Positions 1,471 through 59,836 of a stretch of DNA of 64,000 nt are shown here, piece by piece. Below the pieces are notes generated by a model that was not told where the DNA came from, did no database searches, and saw only the letters and a list, made by a program, of their open reading frames with translations. The position numbers and the translations under genes are program-made. Within the stretch, counting starts at the first letter, position 1, and the number at the start of each line of letters is the position of its first letter. Source of the DNA: Dictyostelium discoideum (taxonomy: Eukaryota); contig CM000154.2 of assembly GCA_000004695.1 (NCBI GenBank), positions 1,568,001 through 1,632,000 on the forward strand. Reading direction: 5' to 3'.

Positions 1471-1878
1471 ACAAATAATTAACATAGTTTTTTTTTGAAA
1501 AAAAAAAAAAAAAAGTATGGGGATCATCTTATGAAAATAAAGATACAAATAAAAATTTAAATTTTTTTTATAGATGTAAAACATGTGCATTATCACCAAA
1601 TTCAAGTATATGTTTTGAATGTTTTAAAGCAGGTCCACATGAAAGAGAGAAACATGATTATTCAATGAGTTTTGCATCCTATGGTGGATCATGTGATTGT
1701 GGAAGTTTGGATTCTTGGAAGAGAAGTGGATTTTGTTCGGAACATGAACATCCAGAAGTTGATTATTCACCATCTGGTGATATGGATAAATTACATTTAC
1801 TCACTACTCATTTAGTATTACGTCATATCTTATTAATCTTTTTAAATATAACTTTTGATCTTCATTCAAATAATAGTA

Positions 1879-1909
<31 letters not shown>

Positions 1910-1994
1910 TTTAACATCATTTACAACAAATACTACCACAACAACAACTACAACTACAACAACAACCACTTCTACATCTACGTCACCAACAAAG

Positions 1995-2042
<48 letters not shown>

Positions 2043-5000
2043 ATAACATTAAATACAATAGAAACAAAAGAAACAATTTCAATTAAAATTTTAAAATGGA
2101 TTAATGATATTGCACATGTTTCAAGATCAATATCACATGTATTATCAGAGGAATTGTGTTATCAATCATTGGATCCGATGTCATTAGATCCAAATAATAT
2201 TAAACCATTGATCTTTACATGTATGGAATATCAACTTGAATTAATTAAAAATTTACAACAACAACAACAAGAAGAAGAAGGACAAGAAGATGAAGAAAAA
2301 GAAAAAGATTCATTAAAATTAACAAATGAAGAAATTGAATTTTTAAAATTTGAATTTAAATTACCAAATGAATTTTCACCACCATTAAAAAGAATATTAT
2401 TTATTGAACAAAAGACAATTAGACAAGAGTATATGTTTATATTTTTATTCCTATTATGTGAACATACATTCAAATTTGGATTTTCACAATCGTATTTAAA
2501 TGTTTACAAGAGTTTATGTTACAAAGACACTGTGGATATATTGTTTAGATTCTCACCTCAAGTGTTTTCAGTTTGTTCAGTTAGTGAACAGTTTTCAATT
2601 GGAATGGAATTTGGTTTTTTGGATTGTATATTCGAATCGTTGTTCTTTCATTTACAAGCATCCGATAAGTTGGATAAGAATCATATTGCCATCGTATCCG
2701 ATTTAAAAACCATTCTACAACATAGGAATATAGCCCATCATATGATCTTTGAAAAGAGAAAGTATTTGAAATATTATATCAATTTGCTTCAAATTATTCA
2801 ATCCACAAGTAATGATATCAAAAGTGGTGGTATTGGTGGCGGTGGTGGCGATGAGCTCAATGATGAGGACTATTACTATCATCATAGTAACAACGACGGT
2901 ACCAACAATGGCGACTATCAAAGACGTTACATCGATACTCATATACCGTATGAAGATATCAATTGGATACAATTCTTTCAGATTGATACCGAGTTGAAGG
3001 ATATTTCAAACATTTTAATCGACTCTTTATCCACTCAAGACACATTGCAAGGCTTAAGAGATATGATTACTTTCATAGCGACTAATTTAATCACAGATCC
3101 ACAAATTCAAGAGTTACAGCCATACTACAATGTAATGGTTTCAAAGAAGGATATCTATTTGGGTGAGAAATCTATCACTACCACTCTACCCTTTCATCGT
3201 TTTTTGGGTGTAACCACTCATAAGGTCATCCAATTGTATAGTGGAATGGTGACAATTAAAGAGTTGCTTCCAATTGATTTCAATTGTTTTGCTTTCCTCT
3301 ATCCTTTGTTAAATGCTAATGTTTACACTCAACAAGTCAATTCCAATTATTGGGTTAGAAATGGTGATGTCAATGTAAAGAAGAAGGCATATGTTTACTC
3401 TTTGTTCTTTTTGGAAATGGATTTATCATTGATTCAAATGATCGCCTCTCTTATAAATGTAAACGATTTTTGTATTTTCACTTCAAAGGAGTTTGGTGCC
3501 CTCTTACCATACGGTTCAACCACTGTCATTGGAGGTAATGAGAAAAACAATTTATTTAGACCATCTTCAAATGTTTCACTCTCTTCCAATCATCATAGAT
3601 ATAGTCATTTCTTAAAGTTTATAATCGAGGTACTACAAGAACGTCTTTTCTTTATGACACCAGATCAACACACAAAATACACTTTGATTCAAATACTTTG
3701 TTCAAAACCAAAAACTCATAGTCAAATTGATTCCGTTATGAATTATGTTGAGCGTGAACTCAAGTATGAACATATTCTAAAGGAGATCTCTGATGAAATT
3801 CCACCTTCTGGTGATAATCCTACAAACTATAAAATGAAGAATGAATTTTGGAAGAATTTCAATCTCTACTATCCAATTTATACTCCTTATATTTTGGGTG
3901 AAGAATCACTTCAAGCATTTTTTGAATATAAAAAACAATTAAAAATTTCTTATCAAAATTCTTTACCAATGCCACCAAAATATGAAAATTTATCTTCAAT
4001 TGAATTTGAAAAATCATCACCATCATCATCGTCATCATCATCGTCATCATCATCATCATCGTCATCATCATCAACACCAAAAATAATAGAAGAATCTGTG
4101 GATGATAATTTTCCAACTACAACAACAACAACCACAACATCCACTGCAACTACTACAATCACAACTACAAATAATAATAATAATAATATTATTATTAAAA
4201 AAGATAATGATCAAATTAAATTCTTTGAAATTATGAATTCAGATTATTTACATTTTATGATTACAAATATTTTGTTATCATTCATTCAAGGTAGAGAAAC
4301 AAATGAAATTGGTTGTGGTATAAATGATGCATTTTATTTATTAGTTTTAATTTTAGAGAATAAAATTAAATTAAAATCATCATCGTCATCATCAACAACA
4401 ACAACAACAGAATTAATAAAAACTGAAATACCATGGACAATTTTAGATCAACCATTAAATTCATTTTCAACTTATGGTGATGCAATTTTATGTATACTTC
4501 AAAAGTTTAATTTCTTTGGTATTGGTAGATCAACATTAGATGTTTTGTTAGAGTATTATCAAGAATCTTATACCAATAATATTTATTTAGATAAAAAGGA
4601 ATACATTGATAAATGTTTATCAATACTTTATAATATTGATGAATCTATAGCAAAAAGAATAAAAACAAGATCACCAACTTTTTCACCAATTAAAAATTTA
4701 TCACTAAATAGTGATGGTAGCGTCATTTCTTCAAATGATGATAATAGTAACAGCAACAACAACAACAACAACAACAACAACAGCAATAATAATGGTGGTA
4801 ATCAAAATAATAATCAAAATAATAATAGCAATGAAGATGATGGTGATGAAAATAATAGTGGTAAACGTGATAATGAAAAGAAATTAAAGGATGCAAAGAA
4901 ACGTCAAGCTGAAATTATGGCAAAATTTGCAAAACAACAAACTCAATTCCTTCAAAATGTAGATGATTTAGGTTATGATGAAGATGACGATGAAATGGAT

Positions 5001-5672
5001 TATAGCTATAGCGCGCATAATAGTGGTAAAAAGAATAAACAAACTCCAATTTCATCACCTGGAAAAACCACTTCCACCACTGCAACATCTTCACCATCAC
5101 CATTTGTTAATAGTAGTAGTAGTAGTAATGGATTTGAATCAATTTCAAAGAGTAAAGAAATATTCAATGATAATATAAAGAATCAAAGTTGTGTATTGTG
5201 TTATGAATCTCATATTAGTGATTCTGATCCATTATCATTGATCTCATTCCTTCAACCAAGTAAAATGATAGCATACTCCAAGTGTCAATACGTTGAAAGA
5301 AAGTACCCCGAATTAACAAAGTATGATTTCTTTGTTGGTAGTGAACCAACCTATTACAATTTCCCACAAAAGAGAGATATGAATACTTTAAACTATATGT
5401 CATCATTACACATTCGTAGTTGTGGTCATTATATTCATAAGAAATGTCATTCAATTTACTTTTTAAAGGTACTCACTCAAGAACAGGATGAAAACTTTAA
5501 ACCATCTCTCAAGGAATTCTTATGTCCATTATGTAGAAGAGTTGCTAATATCATTATGCCAACCTATACTGAATCATCAGTGACATGTTCTCCAATCATC
5601 TCTTATTTTGATATTACCAATAGTACTAATAATAATAATAATAATTCAAATAATAATCTAAATAATAATCTA

Positions 5673-5703
<31 letters not shown>

Positions 5704-6048
5704 GTAATAGTAATAATAATAATATTAGTGGTAGCAATGGTTTAACAAATAGTAATGGTATTGGAAGTAGTAGTAATAGTGTTAACAATAGTCCAAATTT
5801 TGGTGGTAATGCCAATAATCTATCTATTTGGGTCGATTCATTAAAAAAGAGATTAAAAGATTTAGTAGTCATTGAACCAAGAAGTAAACTATTTTTCTCT
5901 GATTGGTTATCAACTTTAATACCTTCAATGATTGAAGGTATTACACCATGGGTACTTTATCAAATTGTTTCAAAAAATATTGAATTTTTAGAATTAGCTT
6001 CAAGATTAGTTGAATTATCACCATCATCATCATCAAATAATAATAATA

Positions 6049-6124
<76 letters not shown>

Positions 6125-7345
6125 GACAACATATCCAATTGGAAATGAATTATTTAGTAGAGATATGTTAACAATTCATACATTATTTAATTTAATTGGT
6201 TCATTAAATCAATCTTCAATTGATAGTAAATTTAAAGAAAGATTAGTTGATATAATCAAAGGTAAATCTGGATCAATTTTATCGGTTGATCCATTTTCAT
6301 TATTCATTGTTTTAGTTTCAATATTGGGTACACCAACAAATCAAGATGTTGAAATCATTACAACTTTGGTTTTAAATTTATTCATTACTCAATTTTATTT
6401 AACAAATTTATATTTAGAAAAAGGTATTAATTTATTAATTAAATTATTGTTTAATATAATTTATAAAACAACTAACATATTTCATAATATTATTTTTTTT
6501 TTTTTTTTTTTTTTCATTAAATTTTAGAAATTAATAAAAAACAAGTTAAATCAATATCACAAATTTTTCAACAAACATATACAGCAGCATCAACATCAAC
6601 ATTAAGAATGAAATATGAAGATAGATTAAAGAAAGTTATGGAACCATTAGCAAGATGTTTGTACATTGCATATCAATTCTTACAACCACCTCAAATTAGT
6701 GGTGATGGTATAAACTATATAAACAGAGAAGACCTTACCAATAAGGAAAAGATTTACTCAAGATTAGGTATAAATTCAATGGAAGAAATAGTCAATAGAG
6801 CATTATTTAACAATCCATACTTGAGTCAATGGTTATCACAAATGGAGAGTAAGAAAGTGGATCCATTCTTTATTGTAGAATATAGACGTCCAAAATTCAT
6901 AACACTTCCAGAGAGTTTTGAAGACTTTTTCGTTTCAAGTGCCCAAAGAGAATGTATGAATTGTAAGACTAAACCAGAGTTTTCTGCAGTTTGCTTACTT
7001 TGTAATCAATTGGTATGCTCTCATAGGAGCGAATGTTGTAATGATGATGATAAACATTATAACATATCCGAAGGCTATAAACATACTTTGAAATGTGGCA
7101 GTTTTAAGGTTGGTTTCTTTTTAGAAACTAAAGCTCCTCGAATCGATATCCTACGTGATCATAGAAAGAGTATTTTTAATAATGGTTACCTCGATCAATA
7201 TGGTGAATCCGATCCAACTTTGGATCGTGGTAAACCATTATTAAGAAATGATAATAACTTTCAAGATCTTTGGAATTGTTGGATTACTCATTCAATTGAG
7301 GATCGTTTCCTTTCAAACTCAACACTTTCTTCTAGAACTTTTTAA
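1035..7345 (+). CDS. UBR-box N-recognin E3 ubiquitin ligase (UBR1/UBR2-like). Proposed CDS join(1035..1401,1516..6423,6528..7345).
   Basis: Exon 1 ends ...VCCSR then GTATGT. Exon 2 continues VWGSSYE...YRCKTCALSPNSSICFECFKAGPHEREKHDYSMSFASYGGSCDCGSLDSWKRSGFCSEHE. This matches the UBR box of human UBR1 ([31 protein letters not shown]...GGFCDCGD..W...GFC..HE). Splice phases are consistent (114-bp and 104-bp AT-rich introns). The last exon carries the C-terminal Cys-rich UBR autoinhibitory region (CMNCKTKPEFSAVCLLCNQLVCSHRSECC). It also has long poly-N/Q/T/S tracts typical of Dictyostelium. Confidence 0.85.
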
Positions 7346-7885: not shown

Positions 7886-10800
7886 ATGAAGTATTCAAGT
7901 TTTTTATTACTTTTTATATATATATTTTTTATTTTAAATAATGTAACTTTTTAAATTTGGACTTTAAAAAATAAAAAATAAAATTAATATAGGATTTATT
8001 AATAGTTTAATAATTATTTTAATTAGATAAATGCTCAATCATGTCCATCTACTAGTTCAACATGGAGACCAACAATGGCATCATTTGTAACACCAACATC
8101 TCCATCAATTGCAACAATTCAACCACAATTAGACTTTTTATTAGGTAAAAATAATTTGGTTTTTATGGGTCAATATGGTTACTCTGCAACTTCGATTACT
8201 GATGGTCCAACAGGTGTAGCAAATTCATTCACTATGAATTATGATACTTGGGGTCCAGCAATGCATTGGTTGGTTGTAAAGACACCTGTTCCCGCTCTTA
8301 AAGCAAATCAAAACTATGAATTTAGTTTTGGTTTTAAATTGGGTCAAGTTTTAGGTAGCTATAATAAAATTGCAAGTATTTCAGTAAACTTTTTTAATCC
8401 AGCCGATATTACAGATCCAAATGGAGGAAGTCAATATTTTGTAACTCCAGCACACCCAGCAGTATATAGTAAAACCGTTACCACTGGTTCGTGGACTTCA
8501 TCTACAACATTTGCCCAAAACATCATTACTCTTACACCTACTGTTGATATTGGTTTATCAATAATGGCAATTCAAATTACTCGTACCTCCCAAACTGGTC
8601 CAGCTATTACCACTATGTTTGTTAGTAACATGAAATTATCAATTCCATCCAGAACCGTTCCAGCTCCACCAACCAACTTAATTACCAAAGATTCCGAATT
8701 AATTGCTATTCCAAAACCATTATCAAGTCTTGATGCTCAAGATTCAACAACATGTCCATACTTAGCAACCGATTTAGTTCACTGGCACGACCCAACAATT
8801 TGGACTAGTGGTGTTGTACCATTACCATCAACTTCATCAAACATTATCATACCAGCAGGTAAAAAAGTTTTAATCTCACCATGCTCAATCAACCAAACCG
8901 GTATTTATCAAAAAATTACTATCCCAGCAACTTCTGAATTAATATTTGCAGATGCAAGCTTAACAATGAATATTCAAGATATTTATGTCCAAGGTAAATT
9001 TATCATGGGTACAACTAAATGTCGTTACAATGCCAATATTAATATTGTATTCAATGGTGCAATGACAACTGTTGATACAATTGCTCAATATTTTGGTTCA
9101 AAAGGTATTGCTGTTGCTTCAGGTGGTTTTATAAGTGTTCATGGTAGACAATACCATAATACTTGGACTAAATTGGCTGCCACTGCTTGGTCTGGTGATA
9201 ATGTTATCTATATTCAAGATGATGTTAATTGGATTGTTGGACAACAAGTTGTAGTTGCAACAAGTGTTTATCAAGATGAGAAATATCCAGAGAATGAAGT
9301 AATGACAATTGCTGCCATCCAAGGAAAAGTTATACAATTCACTGAACCACTTAAATACTATCATTATGGTGGTCAAGAATATCAAGCTGAAGTCGCTCTC
9401 CTAACAAGAAATATCGTTTTCCAAAGTGAGTCTTCATCTGCTGCTTCATCATTTGGTGGTCATGTTCTTGTAAGTGGTGAAGGTCAGTTTGCTGGTATTC
9501 AACTCATTCGTATGGGTCAAAGAAACATAAAAGGTCGTTATCCATTACATTTCCACATGGCAAACACAGTTAGCAAATCCTACATTTCTGATTGTTCAGT
9601 AGTCAGTAGTTATTATCGTTGTTACACAATTCATGCCACTAATAATGTAACTGTTACAAGAAATGTTGCATTTGATGTAAATGGACATTGTTATTATTTA
9701 GAAGATGGTGTTGAAATGGATAACACTCTTTCATTCAACTTTGCTTCATATGTTCATACGATTGGAACTCCAGCAGCAGGATATAATCAATATGGTCAAG
9801 ATTTTACCCAATCATCTTCACTTGCACAACCAGCTGATGTTGCTGCTGGTGGTTTCTATATTACAAACGCATGGAATTCATTTATTGGTAATGCAGCAAG
9901 TGGTGGTTGGGCAGGTTTTTCATTCCCAAACTTAGACGCACCAATTGGTAATTCAATTAATGTTCCAATCGTTCCAAAACAATTCACAACTAAAGTTTTC
10001 CAAGGTAATACAGCACATTCAAGTGGATACTTTTTTGAATTTGGTTCATCCATTTATGTAGGAGGCGATTTATCAACAGGATCAGATGGTTTATTGGTTT
10101 ATAATAGTGGTAGAATTTCAAGAGAAACCTATTTAAATGGTGTTGAATCTGGAGGTGAAATTTGGATGAGATTTAACAATACAAAAGTTTATCTTTCCAA
10201 TAGGGGTATTGGTATGTGGGGTGAACGTGTTGAAGTTATTTTATTAGAAAGTCATGACTCCATTCGTCCAGGTTCATTATTTGGTGAAGCATGGTTATCA
10301 GATGCAATTGTAAATGGTCAAACTGGTAATTTATTGTCTAAAACCACTGATTATTCAAGACAAGGTTTCCAATTTTATGATACTTATGTAAAGACAATTT
10401 TAACCAATATCATTTTCAGAAACTTTGTTCATAATCCATTATCAACAAGTCCAGAAGATGACAATAGAGTGATCATCAGTATGACCCATTCCGATGAATT
10501 TAAACCACAATTTATCTCTGCTACAAAGAATATTACCATTCAAGGTACAGCTGTCTCTCAATATATTGGACATCGTATTTTTGATACTGGTTCAAGTCGT
10601 CAATTTAATTTTGTAGATTATGACGGTACCATTTCAGGTAGAAGTGTTCCAACTATTTTTGGCGCACATGATAAATGGTGGCAATTCGATAACACTTGTA
10701 CATACAATAACGATTGGAATTCTTGGGTTTGTAATAAGGGTACTTATGAAGTTGCAAGTGTATCTGTTGAAGTACCAGGCTATATGGATCGTTCAGGTGA

Positions 10801-11329
10801 ATATGATGCAACATCCAATGTCGGTTATATTTATTTATTCGGTAGTGGAATTACAGATTCAAGAAGAATGAATGTAACAAGAAATGTTGGTATCACTGGT
10901 ATTTCTGACTTTGGATGGTATTTATATTGGACTGTAGGTACACCAAGTTATATTAAACTTTGGTTATCAGAAGTTCCATATGGCCACTATGTTTTCTTTG
11001 CAATTCCATACCCAGCAAGTACAACCTTTAAAGTTTCATGTGAATATAAATATAACTCTCAACATTCTTATAATTTCACACAAGCCACATCAGCCGCTGC
11101 AGTTAGAAGTGGTGATGGTAAGAAATATTATTTCAATGGTACTCATCTTTTTGTTAAAGTTATCAACTTTGTCTTAAATGGAAGTGAATACTTTAGTCGT
11201 GGAGGTGCCAAAATCAATGATGTATATTGGGAGTTCATTGTTCACATTACAGCAACCAATACCGTAAAACCACCTGTAAATGGATTTTATACTGGTTTAA
11301 CAGATGTATTACCTTCAAGTACACTTTAA
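7886..11329 (+). CDS. Secreted G8-domain / right-handed beta-helix protein (CEMIP/KIAA1199-TMEM2-like). Proposed CDS join(7886..7942,8027..11329).
   Basis: The G8 consensus region is CPYLATDLVHWHDPTIWTSGVVPLPSTSSNIIIPAGKKVLISPC...IFADASLTMNIQDIYVQGKFIMGTTKCRY. It is followed by the beta-helix block with GRYPLHFHMANTVSKSYISDCSVVSSYYRCYTIHATNNVTVTRNVAFDVNGHCYYLEDGVEMDNTLSFN, whose GRYPIHFH motif is typical of the CEMIP/TMEM2 family. A 19-codon upstream mini-exon (MKYSSFLLLFIYIFFILNN, a signal peptide) ends at GTAACT. It joins in phase 0 to an AG acceptor at 8025-8026, giving ...NN|INAQSCPSTSSTWRPTMASF. The mini-exon and splice are inferred only. Confidence 0.7.
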
Positions 11330-11461
11330 TAAATCAAAATAATAAAATAGTAAAATAATTATGTTTAATATACAAAATTAAAAATAATGTTTGTTTTTTT
11401 TTTTTTATAATTTTGATGTTCTTTTTATTTTAATATTTTTTATTTAATACTTTGAAATTCC

Positions 11462-11846
11462 AAAGTGGCAGTTTTAAGGTTGGTTTCTTTTTAGAAAATA
11501 AAGCTATTCGGGTGGATATCCTACGTGATAATAGAAAGAGTATTTTTAATGATGGTTCCAATACTGTGAATGTTGGCATCACTGGTATTTCTGACTTTGG
11601 TTGGTATTTAAATAAATAAGTAAATTGGACTGTGGGTGCACCAAGTTATATTAAACTTTGTTTATCAGAAGTTCCATATGCTCGTTATTTGAGAAATTGA
11701 AAAAAAATAATAAAATAAATCAAAATAAAATAATAATAAAATAATTATGTTTATTTTTTTAATTATTTAATCAATACCTCTAAAATAATTTCAGTAATTT
11801 GTAAATAGTTGATTTATTTTTTAGTTTTGATGTTTTTATTTATTTT

Positions 11847-11870
<24 letters not shown>
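11462..11870. repeat. Mosaic pseudo-duplication: a copy of UBR last-exon bases ~7090-7195, then a degraded copy of G8 gene bases ~10868-10990, then a copy of the G8 3' UTR (~11330-11450).
   Basis: 11470-11565 (gtggcagttttaaggttggtttctttttagaaaataaagctattcgggtggatatcctacgtgataatagaaagagtatttttaatgatgg) is ~90% identical to 7095-7195. 11566-11697 (gaatgttggcatcactggtatttctgactttggttggtattt...ccaagttatattaaactttgtttatcagaagttccatatg) matches 10873-10985, with a 14-bp insertion. 11700-11870 repeats 3' UTR motifs (aaatcaaaataa...taaaataattatgttta..., ttttgatgtt). No intact ORF. Confidence 0.8.
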
Positions 11871-11898
<28 letters not shown>

Positions 11899-12011
11899 AA
11901 TTATTATTAATTATTATTAATTATTATTAATTATTATTAATTATTAATTATTATTAATTATTATTATTTATTATTATTATTACTTATTATTATTATTATT
12001 ATTTTTAAAAA

Positions 12012-13925
12012 TTAAAATAATTCATCATCATCATCCTTCTTTTTCAATTTTTTTTCTAAATTCTTATTTTTGTTTTTATTTTGTTTGATTTGTTTATTTG
12101 ATAAACCTTCACCAGATACTGGGGCCAATTTGAATCTTTCTTCTTTTTCTTTTCTCTTTCTCTCTCTTTCTCTTTCCTCCTCTTCAAAAAGATCTAATTG
12201 AGCCTGAGTGATATTTTCTTTTGCCAACTCTTTTTGAATTTCCATTCTTTTTAAGGTTGCAGCAACGGAAGCAGCAACTTGAACTGGATCGGCATCAAGA
12301 CCCAACTCATATAAACGATCGATTTCATCTCTTTCCAATTTCTCTTTTAATCTCTCGGCTTCAGTATTCTCTTTCCTTTCAATTCTTTTAAGATGTTCTT
12401 GTCTCTCTTTAACTGTTAATGGTTGATAGAAACGACTAATGAGTAGACCATTTTTTTCAACATTAGTTTGAACCCTACCAATACCTTTAACCAAAGGTTC
12501 TAAAAGAGCGAAAATCTTTGGACCCTCTTGTGCCACTGGAGAATTACTATCTAAGACAATTCTATCTTTTTTGTCTTGGGGTGATTGTTTGTAGGTGATT
12601 GTAACTTCAACGCTGTGTCTTTTCAAAAGGAATTTAACAATCTGATCAAATTTAACGGCTCTGTCATTTTCATTGATATTTGAAGAGATGATAACACCCT
12701 TAGTTCCTTTGGTAGCATGATCAACTTTTCTTTCTCTCTCTTGTTCTAACCTTTTCTCTGAGATTTTAATGAAATCTTCCAAAGTGACAAGTCTTCCATA
12801 TACATTACCATTTTGACCAAATGTTAAAACGATATCCAACTTTTTAGTGTATGCGAGTCTATAAGCTTGTGGACCACTCATCAAGCCAATGTTAGTACCA
12901 TCGACATTAATCACTTGAACAGAATTTAGATTGATAACATCATCATTGAATTTTGTACGATTGTCTTTAAGTTTATCGACTTCATATAATCTAACACTTA
13001 ATTTTTTGATATCTCCATGATTTGAGAAAACTTTATTTGTAATATAGTTTGAAGGGCTTTTTGGATCACCAACTAAATCTTGATTTTTTGGAAACATTTC
13101 TGAAATCTCTTCATCAGCGAAACCAACCTCTGACAATAGTTTTTTCCTTCTATTCATTTCATAGTTGATTTTATATTCCAAAATCTTACTATTTTTCTTC
13201 TCCCTCATTTTTAAAAGGTTTGCTTTGTGTTCCATTGGTAATCTATCTTCTTGATACACCCTTCTCCCCCTTCTACGTCCATAAGCATCGTCTTCATCAA
13301 AATCGTCCTCTTCTTCTTCTTCTTCTTCTTCTTCTTCTTCAAAATCCTCCTCTTCTTCAAAATCCTCCTCTTCTTCTTCAATATCCTCTTCTTGATCTTC
13401 ATACTCCTCTTGATCATCGATTTCATTTTTTTGACGTCCATCATGAATTGGATTTTGTTTTGGACGAGATAAACTTGTCTTACCAAAATTTTTCTTTCGT
13501 GGTGGGAAAACGTGTAATTGATCATCATCTACCAAATCAACTTGTGGTTCTTTAAAATTTTCAGTTTCATCCAAATAGATATCAAATGATGAAATTTTAA
13601 TCTTTTTCTTTTGGTTAATTTCACGTTTTGATTTTTCAATCTTTGGATTTAATTGTTCTTCAATATATTTTTCATCTAAATCCATCTCTAAATCTTCAGC
13701 TCCCTCTTCTAAACCCATTGCACTTTTAATTTTTTCAGGTTCATAATTTGGAGTAATTGAAATTGAAGGTTTTTTAATATAATATCTATTTAAATTAATT
13801 TTATCATTATTAATTGAAACTAATGACAATGATGATGATGATGATGATGATGATGATAATGGTGTGAAAATTAATTTATTTAGGTATTGATTATTTCTTA
13901 AAATTTTATTTGTTACTGATAACAT
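12012..13925 (-). CDS. Translation initiation factor IF-3 (organellar/mitochondrial type) with long low-complexity N- and C-terminal extensions and an acidic E/D-rich insert.
   Basis: Single 637-aa ORF. VQVINVDGTNIGLMSGPQAYRLAYTKKLDIVLTFGQNGNVYGRLVTLEDF matches the IF3 N-domain (VRLIdedGeqlGvmstreALelAee.glDLVev.p.a.PPVcrimDygkf). KGVIISSNINENDRAVKFDQIVKFLLKRHSVEVTITYK matches the IF3 C-domain (KEIKFRP.iDEhDyqvKlr.i.rFLekG.kVKvti.fRGRE). The N-terminus (MLSVTNKILRNNQYLNKLIFTPLSSSSS) is consistent with a mitochondrial presequence. Confidence 0.75.
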   Translation of the reverse strand: MLSVTNKILRNNQYLNKLIFTPLSSSSSSSSSLSLVSINNDKINLNRYYIKKPSISITPNYEPEKIKSAMGLEEGAEDLEMDLDEKYIEEQLNPKIEKSKREINQKKKIKISSFDIYLDETENFKEPQVDLVDDDQLHVFPPRKKNFGKTSLSRPKQNPIHDGRQKNEIDDQEEYEDQEEDIEEEEEDFEEEEDFEEEEEEEEEEEDDFDEDDAYGRRRGRRVYQEDRLPMEHKANLLKMREKKNSKILEYKINYEMNRRKKLLSEVGFADEEISEMFPKNQDLVGDPKSPSNYITNKVFSNHGDIKKLSVRLYEVDKLKDNRTKFNDDVINLNSVQVINVDGTNIGLMSGPQAYRLAYTKKLDIVLTFGQNGNVYGRLVTLEDFIKISEKRLEQERERKVDHATKGTKGVIISSNINENDRAVKFDQIVKFLLKRHSVEVTITYKQSPQDKKDRIVLDSNSPVAQEGPKIFALLEPLVKGIGRVQTNVEKNGLLISRFYQPLTVKERQEHLKRIERKENTEAERLKEKLERDEIDRLYELGLDADPVQVAASVAATLKRMEIQKELAKENITQAQLDLFEEEERERERKRKEKEERFKLAPVSGEGLSNKQIKQNKNKNKNLEKKLKKKDDDDELF

Positions 13926-22587: not shown

Positions 22588-22687
22588 NNNNNNNNNNNNN
22601 NNNNNNNNNNNNNNNNNNNNNNNNNNNNNNNNNNNNNNNNNNNNNNNNNNNNNNNNNNNNNNNNNNNNNNNNNNNNNNNNNNNNNNN
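22588..22687. other. Assembly gap (100 N)
   Basis: Run of exactly 100 n inside the retrotransposon. Confidence 1.
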
Positions 22688-25964: not shown

Positions 25965-26125
25965 TATCTATTAATTTGCATCCATATTAATTTCAGCAGT
26001 CATATTAATTTCAGCAGCCATATTAATTTGCAACCATATTAATTTCAGCAGGCTAAAATAAATATGACTATTAAGTTGCAGCCATATTAATTTCAGCAGC
26101 CATATTAATTTGTAACCATATTAAT
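25965..26125. repeat. Minisatellite: ~7 tandem units with core CATATTAATTT(CAGCAGC)
   Basis: catattaatttcagcagt catattaatttcagcagc catattaatttgcaac catattaatttcagcagg...catattaatttcagcagc catattaatttgtaac catattaatttt. It is GC-containing, unlike the surrounding DNA, and lies 150-320 bp upstream of the 26285 ATG. Confidence 0.85.
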
Positions 26126-26284
26126 TTTGGCATGGGACATTCAGTGCGAAAAAAAAAAATAAAAAAAAAAATAAAAAAATGAATAAAAAAATAAATAAAA
26201 AAATAAAAAAATAAAAAAATAAAATAAAAAATAGTATATTGCAACGTAATAAACTATTTTTTTTATTTATTTTAGTTTATAATA

Positions 26285-54545: not shown

Positions 54546-55654
54546 ATGTGTATTAAAATAATAATGAATCCATTTACAGATTATCAAGTACAATTTTTTG
54601 AAAGAATAAAATTGAAACCAAGAATAATTGAATCATTAGATGATATTTCAGAAGTTTTAGTAGCTTGTTCAAAAGTATTTACATTTGAAAATTTAGATAT
54701 CATAAGTAATACTCAAGAAGCATTAACAAGAAAAGTTTTAATAAAACAAGTTTTAATTAATAAACAAGGTGGATTATGTTATAAAGCAAATACTTTATTA
54801 TATTATTTCCTTTTAGATTTCGGTTTAAATGTTCACCAAACTAGAGCAACTTGTGAAAATCAAGGTATTTTTCTTTTTTTTTTTTTATTTCATTTTATTT
54901 TATTTTATTTTATTTTATTTTATTTTATTTTATTTTTAGTTTTAGTTTTGTTAATAAATATTTTTTTTTTTTTAAAGAGAGTCATAGTCGTTGGAATATT
55001 GGCCATGGTCATATGATTAATATATTGAATTTTGAAAATAAATTATATGTAATGGATGTTGCATTTGGATGTAATTTATCATTAAGGCCAGTACCAATTA
55101 CAGATGATGGTAGTGAAGTTATTGAATCTTGTATTGGATTATATAGAGTTATTAAAAGAGAAAATATAGTTGCTGGAGTATATCATTATACACATATTTT
55201 AGAACATAGAAAACCAGATACTTATTTAATTGAATCTGCAAAGAATTGGGTAATTGGTTATGCATTTGATCCTTTATTAATTTGTAAAAATGATGGTGAT
55301 GATGATGATGATGATAATAATAATAATAATAATACTCATCAAACTCAAATTCAACAATTAGTAATAGATGATCCAAATAAAGATTTTTGTGTAAAGCCAT
55401 TAGCAACTAAATTAATAAATAATACAGATAATAATAATAATAATAATTCAATAGCGACATTAACCTTAAATTCATTCACACTTACAAATTGTAAAACTGG
55501 CGAAAAAATTAAAACAAATTTTGATAATGATAATTTATTTGAACAATTTAATCAACATTTAATTTCAATTTTTAATTTACCACCTTTAAAAATTATACCT
55601 CAAATATTTTTAAATCAAACATCAAATTTTCCTATAAATAATTTAAATAGTTAA
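54546..55654 (+). CDS. Arylamine N-acetyltransferase (NAT) family protein, copy 1. join(54546..54864,54978..55654)
   Basis: ...FENLDIISNTQEAL...NKQGGLCYKANTLLYYFLLDFG (NAT catalytic Cys, compare human [23 protein letters not shown]) ...ENQG|ESHSRWNIGHGHMINILNFENKLYVMDVAFG (His/Asp of the triad, compare HLLLQVTIDGRNYIVDAGFG). A phase-1 intron follows ENQG (GTATTT...AAAG). Confidence 0.8.
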
Positions 55655-55806: not shown

Positions 55807-55906
55807 NNNNNNNNNNNNNNNNNNNNNNNNNNNNNNNNNNNNNNNNNNNNNNNNNNNNNNNNNNNNNNNNNNNNNNNNNNNNNNNNNNNNNNNNNNNNNN
55901 NNNNNN
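55807..55906. other. Assembly gap (100 N)
   Basis: Run of 100 n between NAT copies 1 and 2. Confidence 1.
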
Positions 55907-56316: not shown

Positions 56317-57307
56317 ATGGAACCAAATCCAATATTTAGCGAATTTCAATTAGAATTTTTTAAAAGAATTAAAATGCAACCAAAATCAATAGAAACATTA
56401 AATGATGTTTCAGAAGTGATGAGTGGTTGTGCACAAATTTTTTCATTTGAAAATTTAGATGTAGTTGCAAATACAACTGAACCTTTAAATAGAGAAGTGA
56501 TAATTCAACAACTTGTAAATAATAAACAAGGTGGATTATGTTATAAAATTAATTCTGTATTTTATTATTTTATTAAAAGTTTTGGTTTTAATATTTATCA
56601 AGTTAGATGTTGTGTTGAAAATCAAGGTATGTTTTTTTGGTTAAAAAAAAAAAGTTGAAAAAAAAAAAAAAAATTTTATTAACAAATTTTTAAAAAAATA
56701 AAAAATAAAAAATAAAGAAACACATGATTGTTGGCAAATTAATGGTGCACATATTATAAATATAATTGAATATGAAAATAAAAAATATTTAGCAGACGTT
56801 GCATTTGGATGTAATTTATCATATGAACCAATTCCATTTTCAGAAGAGATTATTGAATCATGTACAGGTTTATATCGTATTCGTAAAGTTGATAATATTA
56901 TTAGGGATATTAAATATACATATCTTTTAGAATTTAAAAAACCAGATTCATTTTCACCAGAATCTGCTCGTTTATGGACCAATGGTTATGCATTTGATCC
57001 ATTGGTAAAAGCAATTGATATTGATGAAAATGATAAAATTGATAGTCATGCAACTCAAATTCAACAATTAATTATTGATGATCCAACAAAAGAATTTAGT
57101 GTTAAACCTTTAGCTACAAAAGTTGTAAACAATGAATCAATAGCAACTTTAACCTCAAATTCATTCACTTTAACAAATTGTAAAACTGGTGAAAAAACAA
57201 AAGTTACCTTTGATATCAATAATGAAATCAAACAATTAGAACAATTTAATCAACATTTAATTTCAATTTTTAATTTACCACCTTTAAAATTTTTACCAAA
57301 AATTTAA
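56317..57307 (+). CDS. Arylamine N-acetyltransferase family protein, copy 2. join(56317..56626,56718..57307)
   Basis: MEPNPIFSEFQLEFFKRIKMQPKSIETLNDVSEVMSGCAQIFSFENLDVVANT...NKQGGLCYKINSVFYYFIKSFGFNIYQVRCCVENQG|ETHDCWQINGAHIINIIEYENKKYLADVAFGCNL.... The intron position and phase match copy 1 (GTATGT donor). Exon 2 is open from the acceptor, and the ORF track shows only its last 101 aa. Confidence 0.8.
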
Positions 57308-58030: not shown

Positions 58031-58671
58031 TAATAATTGTTTACATTAATAATTTTATAGAAACTCATTCAGATTGGAATATTCCAACTGGTCATATGAT
58101 TAATATAATTAATTTTGAAAATAGGTTATATGTTGTTGATGTTGCATTTGGATGTAATCTTTCATTGAGACCAATTCCAATTACAGATGATGGTAGTGAA
58201 GTAGTTGAATCCTGCACAGGTTTATATCGTGTTCGTAAAGTTGAAAATTGTGTTTCTGGAAAATATAATTATACACATATTCTAGAACATAGGAAATTGG
58301 ATAGTTTTTTAATTGAATCTGGAAAGACCTGGGTGACAGGTTATGCATTTGATCCATTATTAATTGTTGATAATAATAATAATAATGAAAAAACAACCCA
58401 CCAAACACTTGTACAACAATTAGTAATTGATGATCCAACTAAAGAATTTAGTACTAAACCTTTGGCTACTAAAATTGTAAATGATGGTTCATCATTCTCT
58501 ATTGCAACTTTAACTGCAAATTCATTCACACTTACAGATTGTAAAACTGGTCAAAAAACTAAAACCAATTTTGATAATGATAAATCATCATTTGAACAAT
58601 TTAATCAACATTTAATTTCAATTTTTAATTTACCACCTTTAAAAACAATTCCGCCAATATTTTTAAATTAA
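57652..58671 (+). CDS. Arylamine N-acetyltransferase family protein, copy 3. join(57652..57961,58061..58671)
   Basis: MEAISIFSDYQLQFFKRIGMKPKPIETLDDVSDVMKACSNVFSFENLDIVSNS...NNQGGLCYKINTLLYHFLLEFGFKIHIIRGSVENQG|ETHSDWNIPTGHMINIINFENRLYVVDVAFGCNLSLRPIPITDDGSEV.... Same phase-1 intron position. Confidence 0.8.
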
Positions 58672-59736: not shown

Positions 59737-59836
59737 NNNNNNNNNNNNNNNNNNNNNNNNNNNNNNNNNNNNNNNNNNNNNNNNNNNNNNNNNNNNNNNN
59801 NNNNNNNNNNNNNNNNNNNNNNNNNNNNNNNNNNNN
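59737..59836. other. Assembly gap (100 N), followed by ~150 bp of low-quality-looking sequence
   Basis: A run of n is followed by ttaaggggatttaaggggttttaaggggattt...ttttcccccccggggggtaagg, with homopolymer stutter atypical of this genome. Confidence 0.9.

Follow-up and report, generated by a model that had tools for sequence, protein, structure and literature searches.

In the genome of Dictyostelium discoideum, the short spacer between a G8/CEMIP-like gene and the convergent IF3-like gene carries a mosaic block, which we read with a probability of about 0.65 as a non-functional scar left by several steps of duplication and DNA repair in the order proposed below. A piece of the last exon of a UBR1-like E3 ligase gene is joined here to a piece of the adjacent G8 gene. 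This pair is followed by a short duplicate of the G8 3′ flank, which is itself interrupted by the relic of a third gene, here called X. At its core, the block is a chimeric pseudo-duplication, as the original prediction had taken it to be; it was assembled from DNA, not RNA, with two genomic sources on the same strand, and its decay speaks against a function. Its assumed single origin and its supposed effect on the G8 transcript fared less well in the comparison with orthologous loci.

The window—the whole 64-kb stretch of D. discoideum DNA that was analyzed—has a G+C content of 22.8% (78% A+T). The spacer that holds the mosaic measures 681 nt between the convergent 3′ ends of the G8 (+) and IF3-like (−) genes; its A+T content is 90%, and AATAAA-like strings occur everywhere within it. 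The flanking genes and the two source segments are, in window coordinates:

ORFs 1665–6527 and 6608–7345, plus strand: exons of the UBR1-like E3 ligase gene, with matches to the UBR1-like winged-helix domain and the PRT6_C domain (E = 4e-36)
7083–7208, plus strand: source of the UBR patch, within the last UBR exon (ORF 6608–7345, PRT6_C domain)
ORF 8075–11329 with stop codon 11328–11330, plus strand: G8/CEMIP-like gene with G8 and CEMIP beta-helix domains
10683–10982, plus strand: duplicated G8 source segment, of which AX4 keeps a copy of 10883–10982 only and FIY keeps copies of ~10683–10784 and 10902–10982
11849–12005, no strand: T49 homopolymer (11849–11897), then an (ATT)n-type microsatellite extending as far as the 3′ end of the IF3-like gene
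12012–13925, minus strand: IF3-like gene, convergent with the G8 gene

By the members listed in a homologue search, the G8 gene shares a 90%-identity cluster with DDB_G0288475 of strain AX4. It is 3.4 kb long and bears a short 5′ exon at 7887–7943, which encodes the signal-peptide-like MKYSSFLLLFIYIFFILNN and is followed by an 83-nt intron ending at 8026. Because of this exon, the ORF from 8075 represents an incomplete protein, the annotated G8 protein having 1119 aa. The G8 paralogues reach at most 63% protein identity, and the adjacent gene is therefore the only possible source of a DNA copy that is 93% identical. The T49/(ATT)n tract at 11849–12005 is a candidate for a fragile or slippage-prone element.

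The spacer itself is composed of the following elements:

11331–11446, plus strand: G8 3′ flank, copy 1 (the genuine 3′ UTR region, immediately adjoining the stop codon)
11447–11571, plus strand: UBR-derived patch, ~88% identical to 7083–7208 by gapped alignment
11569–11680, plus strand: G8-derived fragment, source 10883–10982 by gapped alignment
11681–11713, no strand: spacer between the G8 fragment and flank copy 2, with a homologous spacer in FIR, FIW, and FIY
11714–11753, plus strand: G8 3′ flank, copy 2, part A, 37/40 identical to 11328–11367
11749–11817, minus strand: relic of the lost gene X, 83% identical over 65 nt to the X ORF of D. citrinum
11825–11856, plus strand: G8 3′ flank, copy 2, part B, 29/32 identical to 11411–11441

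Nine orthologous loci were retrieved by means of the G8 protein cluster, making ten assemblies together with the window. Their locus tags and their set of species agree with the nanopore genomes of PMC12745789, among which is the laboratory strain AX2-214. The loci are:

L002, D. discoideum (GCA_054883475.1, chromosome-level): intact block, 100% identical to the window
L006 and L007, wild D. discoideum with the tags FIR and FIW: UTR-to-UBR junction and G8 3′ boundary as in AX4
L005, 'cf. discoideum' FIY: without UBR sequence, with a longer G8 copy (~10683–10784 plus 10902–10982)
L009, 'cf. discoideum' FIZ: no second copy of the UBR or G8 piece, an unrelated insert of ~520 nt instead
L003 and L008, D. 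citrinum: no second copy, X and cytochrome P450 genes present
L004, D. dimigraforme: no second copy, X decayed, P450 present
L001, D. firmibasis: no second copy, spacer of 240 nt

In DNA of such composition, the reality of any repeat has to be established before its history is discussed. The block is richer in G+C (32%) and not of low complexity. Its best match elsewhere in the window scores 133 bits, whereas 200 triplet shuffles averaged 27.8 and did not exceed 35.3. With AT-rich DNA hard-masked, the UBR and G8 pairs take first and third place by strength among the internal repeats of the 64 kb. These values lie far outside chance expectation for AT-rich DNA. A collapse or mis-join during assembly could be suspected from the three 100-N gaps elsewhere in the reference window and from the long homopolymer and microsatellite tracts that flank the spacer. 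However, the independent assembly L002 differs from the window over 17.4 kb by no mismatch and by seven indels only, and it carries the identical block despite a different homopolymer length—its T run measures ~36 nt, ~13 nt shorter than the T49 of the window. Three wild genomes bear diverged and decayed orthologous versions in addition. Both artefact and chance similarity are already refuted as explanations of the block.

The UBR-derived patch was detected by a repeat search of the window as a match of 7092–7187 to 11462–11557 with 91% identity over 96 nt, and gapped alignment extends it to 7083–7208 versus 11447–11571, with a 6-nt insertion (11459–11464) and 7 nt of deletions relative to the source. 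A UBR piece close to the G8 stop codon, as claimed earlier, is hence present; its source was picked within the window, a protein search with the UBR C terminus returned nothing, and a UBR paralogue elsewhere in the genome would be a possible alternative. The G8-derived fragment falls into two blocks of 93% identity each (10883–10927 versus 11569–11613 and 10923–10982 versus 11621–11680), which are split by a 12-nt insertion at ~11611–11623. It lies 239 nt downstream of the G8 stop codon on the plus strand, adjacent to its parent and in the parent's orientation. The claim that this piece represents the last ~120 coding bases of the gene has to be corrected: the copied segment is internal and ends at 10982, 347 nt upstream of the stop codon, in every strain that carries a copy. 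The predicted same-strand sources about 4 kb apart agree with the coordinates, as both lie on the plus strand at a distance of 3.8 kb, and the UBR template is found 4.2 kb upstream of the patch. At the right junction, the trinucleotide AAT (11569–11571) is common to the UBR patch and the G8 fragment; at the left junction, AT is shared by both sides of the UTR/UBR join—overlaps of 2–3 nt that are weak in 78% A+T DNA.

The duplicate of the 3′ flank is more difficult to judge, because both of its parts, although collinear with copy 1, are AT-rich. Loose-scoring BLAST of this downstream part returned matches of 65–70% to every AT-rich spacer and was replaced by an empirical null of 3000 random AT-rich window segments. 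The score of flank copy 1 versus copy 2 in AX4 was reached by 0.23% of these segments with strict and by 1.7% with loose scoring, corresponding to empirical p values of 0.002 and 0.017. In the other strains, the corresponding fractions were 0.9% in FIY, 0/1500 in FIR, and 0/1500 in FIW. Two hand-typed UTR patterns, searched with up to three mismatches, each matched their own site only and were uninformative. The flank duplication is real but short and modestly supported. Of the 3′ UTR duplicate postulated at first, the two collinear matches (p ~0.002–0.02) have stood, while the middle part at 11749–11817 turned out to be the minus-strand relic of gene X.

In D. citrinum, X is a minus-strand ORF of 1005 residues directly downstream of G8, and the counterpart of the relic lies at 12841–12905 of L008. 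On the minus strand, the relic translates to INQLFTNY*NYFRGID versus LNQLFTNYPNYFSDID of X. The relic recurs, stop codon included, in the wild strains FIR and FIW, and a shorter remnant, in which the stop is also present, is found in FIY. X belongs to an uncharacterized Dictyostelium family; a search with the D. citrinum protein found only members of 31–33% identity. Between the G8 and IF3-like genes, X is accompanied by a cytochrome P450 gene in both D. citrinum genomes (L003 10530–16180 and L008 10528–15753) and in D. dimigraforme (L004 11702–14934), where X is decayed. Both genes are absent at this locus in the discoideum clade and in D. firmibasis, and the synteny difference falls exactly on the spacer. 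As X and P450 are present in D. citrinum and absent in the discoideum clade, the spacer is also the scar of a gene loss.

The comparison across genomes separates the two halves of the mosaic. AX4/L002, FIR, and FIW all have the UBR patch and FIY lacks it; most simply, the patch would have arisen in the D. discoideum stem. FIR and FIW show extra losses, namely a 30-nt deletion within the UBR piece and a larger deletion across the UBR/G8 join. In FIY, the longer G8 copy sits directly behind a first flank copy that includes poly-T and microsatellite, and poly-T/microsatellite together with the copy of 10683–10784 occupy the place where AX4, FIR, and FIW carry the UBR patch. This arrangement points to a tandem duplication with a unit reaching from G8 position 10683 to the microsatellite. 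The block is missing from five genomes—FIZ, the two of D. citrinum, D. firmibasis, and D. dimigraforme. The insert of FIZ (L009 ~10560–11090, ~520 nt) is moderately GC-containing, bears only short ORFs, and shows no match to G8, UBR, the X and P450 region, or any compared locus. A further observation concerns the G8 copy of FIY, which at L005 ~10590–10605 reads AAGGTTGG while the G8 parent reads ACGATTGG; an 8-mer of this copy equals the core of the UBR patch (window 11474–11490) at the equivalent place in AX4, FIR, and FIW. This agreement may be due to chance or may be the microhomology that seeded a template switch.

A handful of informative sites, read by parsimony, allows for a relative dating. 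At 10722, 10909, and 10932, the G8 copies carry the derived states of D. discoideum and FIY, from which FIZ and all outgroups differ; therefore, the duplication is younger than the split from FIZ. At 10744, the FIY copy still shows the ancestral A, in contrast to the T of every parent gene in D. discoideum and FIY, and the duplication is therefore older than the split between D. discoideum and FIY. For the UBR patch, evidence is sparse: site 7099 is C in the copies of AX4 and FIW as well as in the AX4 source, but T in FIY and the outgroups. Two further UBR sites are in conflict: 7177 puts the copy after the FIZ split, while at 7195 the copy shows the state of FIZ and D. citrinum. On balance, at least two separate events—a tandem duplication and a later UBR patch in D. 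discoideum proper—are favored over one.

From these sites and from the boundaries in each genome, we infer the following order of steps. In the beginning, X and the P450 gene would have been lost from the spacer in the discoideum clade, leaving behind the 65-nt piece of X. After the FIZ split and before D. discoideum and FIY separated, a tandem duplication might then have copied a unit comprising no less than 300 nt of the G8 coding region from 10683 on, the remainder of the gene, and the 3′ flank as far as the poly-T/(ATT)n tract. The last 347 coding nucleotides of the copy were probably lost early, because this boundary is common to all copies. In the D. discoideum stem, a single break-repair event may have deleted the poly-T/microsatellite of the first flank together with the copy of 10683–10882. 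The gap would have been filled with ~126 nt synthesized from the last UBR exon, 4 kb upstream on the same strand, and the AT and AAT microhomologies at the junctions would fit a templated insertion via template switching, either in break repair or in replication. Since then, the block appears to have drifted neutrally, each strain acquiring its own deletions and substitutions. Template switching or aberrant repair, the mechanism suggested at the outset, seems about right in general; the comparative data favor at least two events over the single one in which it was supposed to have acted.

Such a single origin was conceived as one complex event, in which serial switching of the FoSTeS/MMBIR kind would have joined UTR, UBR exon, G8 interior, and UTR in one go, followed by later losses of the UBR part in FIY and of the copy of 10683–10882 in the AX4 lineage. 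All pieces lie on the same strand within 4.4 kb and share microhomologies of 2–3 nt at their joins; their divergences from the source are similar (~9–12% for UBR and ~6–7% for G8 with the insertion left out), and the state of FIZ and D. citrinum at UBR site 7195 could mean an older origin. However, at least three extra deletions would be needed, each ending by coincidence right where a surviving piece begins or ends; in FIY, poly-T/microsatellite and the copy of 10683–10784 occupy precisely the position of the patch in AX4; and UBR site 7099 ties the patch to the D. discoideum source and not to that of FIY. A single complex event is less parsimonious than the two-step history, and we regard it as unlikely. 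The arrangement of FIY bears even more heavily on an origin via RNA, be it a retrocopy of a chimeric or read-through UBR–G8 transcript or template switching of a reverse transcriptase between two mRNAs. The source genes are neighbors on one strand, the pieces follow each other in transcript order, and the block ends in UTR-like sequence, all of which a retrocopy would explain. Yet no poly(A) follows the UTR copy—there is a T49 on the plus strand instead—and the block lies directly beside its parent gene. The boundaries of its pieces show no GT/AG splice sites, and neither a target-site duplication, flanking direct repeats, or a retroelement nor tRNA genes, which TRE elements target, are found nearby. 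In FIY, the longer copy sits behind a duplicated flank including the microsatellite, a genomic structure and not that of an mRNA. This structure largely refutes the retrocopy, which we consider highly improbable. Pack-MULE-like or Helitron-like elements typically carry mosaics of unrelated gene fragments, and the block resembles such cargo in its make-up. The inverted repeats around it, however, amount to complementarity of A/T runs only (70–92%), no further copy exists in the window or at the nine loci, and FIY shows the arrangement of a local tandem duplication, so that capture by a transposon has next to no credibility.

Whether the block does anything at all bears on the remaining alternative, a functional element, which might act as a second polyadenylation or termination region for G8, as an alternative 3′ exon, or—upon read-through from the IF3-like gene—as a source of antisense or small RNA against UBR and G8. 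Its position between two convergent 3′ ends makes transcription across it conceivable, and the UBR and G8 pieces happen to share the same phase. The frame through both pieces, however, is interrupted by TAA at 11431–11433 and 11617–11619 and contains no ATG, the second stop lying in the reading frame within the 12-nt insertion of the G8 fragment. In the main block of the UBR patch, two of eight substitutions fall on third codon positions and show no third-position bias, whereas the orthologous UBR genes have 16 of 20 variable sites at third positions over the same stretch, as counted from the site table. The copies of AX4 and the wild strains are ~92% identical as compared with 97–99% for the parent segments; different strains have deleted different parts of the block, and FIZ and four other genomes do without it. 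The block contains no tRNA gene, and all of its Rfam matches stay below threshold, mir-1006 coming closest with 22.8 bits versus a gathering score of 64 (E = 0.14). Readings as an RNA gene or a coding exon were rejected on these stops, the absent tRNA gene, and the subthreshold Rfam matches. Neither an ORF nor signs of constraint or function were found in the block; judging from its decay, it would be non-functional, and we consider a functional element, with its RNA-source variant included, very unlikely. The notion that a second polyadenylation region could affect how the G8 transcript is processed at its 3′ end has no specific support: other strains have lost the block piece by piece, and AATAAA-like strings are ubiquitous in the spacer anyway.

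The preferred reading as a duplication and repair scar places the block among known kinds of genomic debris. It is like a non-processed pseudogene fragment in lying adjacent to its parent in the same orientation, in including non-coding flank collinearly, and in being disabled by indels and a stop, free of codon constraint, and deletion-polymorphic between strains. Unlike such fragments, it only ever kept ~100–300 nt of a 3.4-kb gene and is fused to a piece of another gene beside the relic of a third. Break-repair junctions more generally acquire filler DNA via polymerase-theta end joining, via synthesis-dependent strand annealing with template switching, or via FoSTeS/MMBIR. The UBR patch resembles such templated insertions, as it brings ~126 nt from 4 kb away on the same chromosome and strand. 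The microhomologies of 2–3 nt at its borders are too short to be significant in AT-rich DNA, and a replacement of deleted sequence in one event would, by parsimony, be consistent with the arrangement in FIY. Templated insertions by polymerase theta typically comprise tens of nucleotides. The patch is longer than that and, unlike fresh insertions, ancient—at ~10% divergence, the original junctions are blurred. With processed pseudogenes and chimeric retrocopies, the block has in common the exon mosaic of two genes followed by 3′ UTR-like sequence, but it lacks poly(A) and a target-site duplication, is parent-adjacent, and corresponds to a genomic tandem duplication in the sister lineage. A literature search turned up no work on this locus and none on Dictyostelium templated insertions. 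The block represents a known kind of genomic scar, of which it is an ordinary and undescribed case.

The closest parallel in the same genus and genome set is the hypermutable tgrBC hotspot, whose unalignable spacers hold duplicates and partial fragments of neighboring genes and which gains and loses genes between close relatives; repeated local double-strand breaks with non-homologous repair are proposed by the authors as the cause (PMC12745789). Fragments of neighboring genes in an unalignable spacer are shared by both loci (PMC12745789). In contrast, the spacer described here is shorter than 1 kb, lies in a UBR / G8 / IF3-like / HMG-CoA synthase neighborhood, and comes without recognition genes or an evident selective benefit. 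It nevertheless displays at least six states among ten assemblies: X and P450 present (D. citrinum), X decayed (D. dimigraforme), a minimal 240 nt (D. firmibasis), an unrelated insert of ~520 nt (FIZ), a tandem G8 copy (FIY), and the UBR/G8 mosaic in two stages of decay (AX4/L002 and FIR/FIW). One might therefore entertain the tentative idea, for which we see about one chance in a handful or slightly better, that the convergent spacer with its T36–T49 and (ATT)n end is a small recurrent breakage hotspot, similar in kind to tgrBC. The UBR patch would then document, from nature, that Dictyostelium can repair breaks by long (>100 nt) templated insertions, and fork stalling at the homopolymer would perhaps be the trigger.

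For annotation, the mosaic should be excluded from the gene models and 3′-UTR annotations of DDB_G0288475. Beyond that, its value is modest: it offers a datable multi-genome record of break repair in an extremely AT-rich Dictyostelium spacer—covering tandem duplication, gene loss, a ~126-nt patch from 4 kb away, and deletion-driven decay. Moreover, fragments of neighboring genes in unalignable spacers, as described for tgrBC (PMC12745789), occur at an unremarkable housekeeping locus, too.

Elsewhere in the window, the 100-N gaps are located at 22588–22687, 55807–55906, and 59737–59836. Apart from the repeats of the mosaic, the non-low-complexity pairs 55062–55251 / 58145–58334 and 57062–57190 / 58414–58551 have the appearance of a diverged paralogue pair (80–88%), and 25997–26045 / 26079–26127 form a short, likewise non-low-complexity direct repeat of 96% identity.
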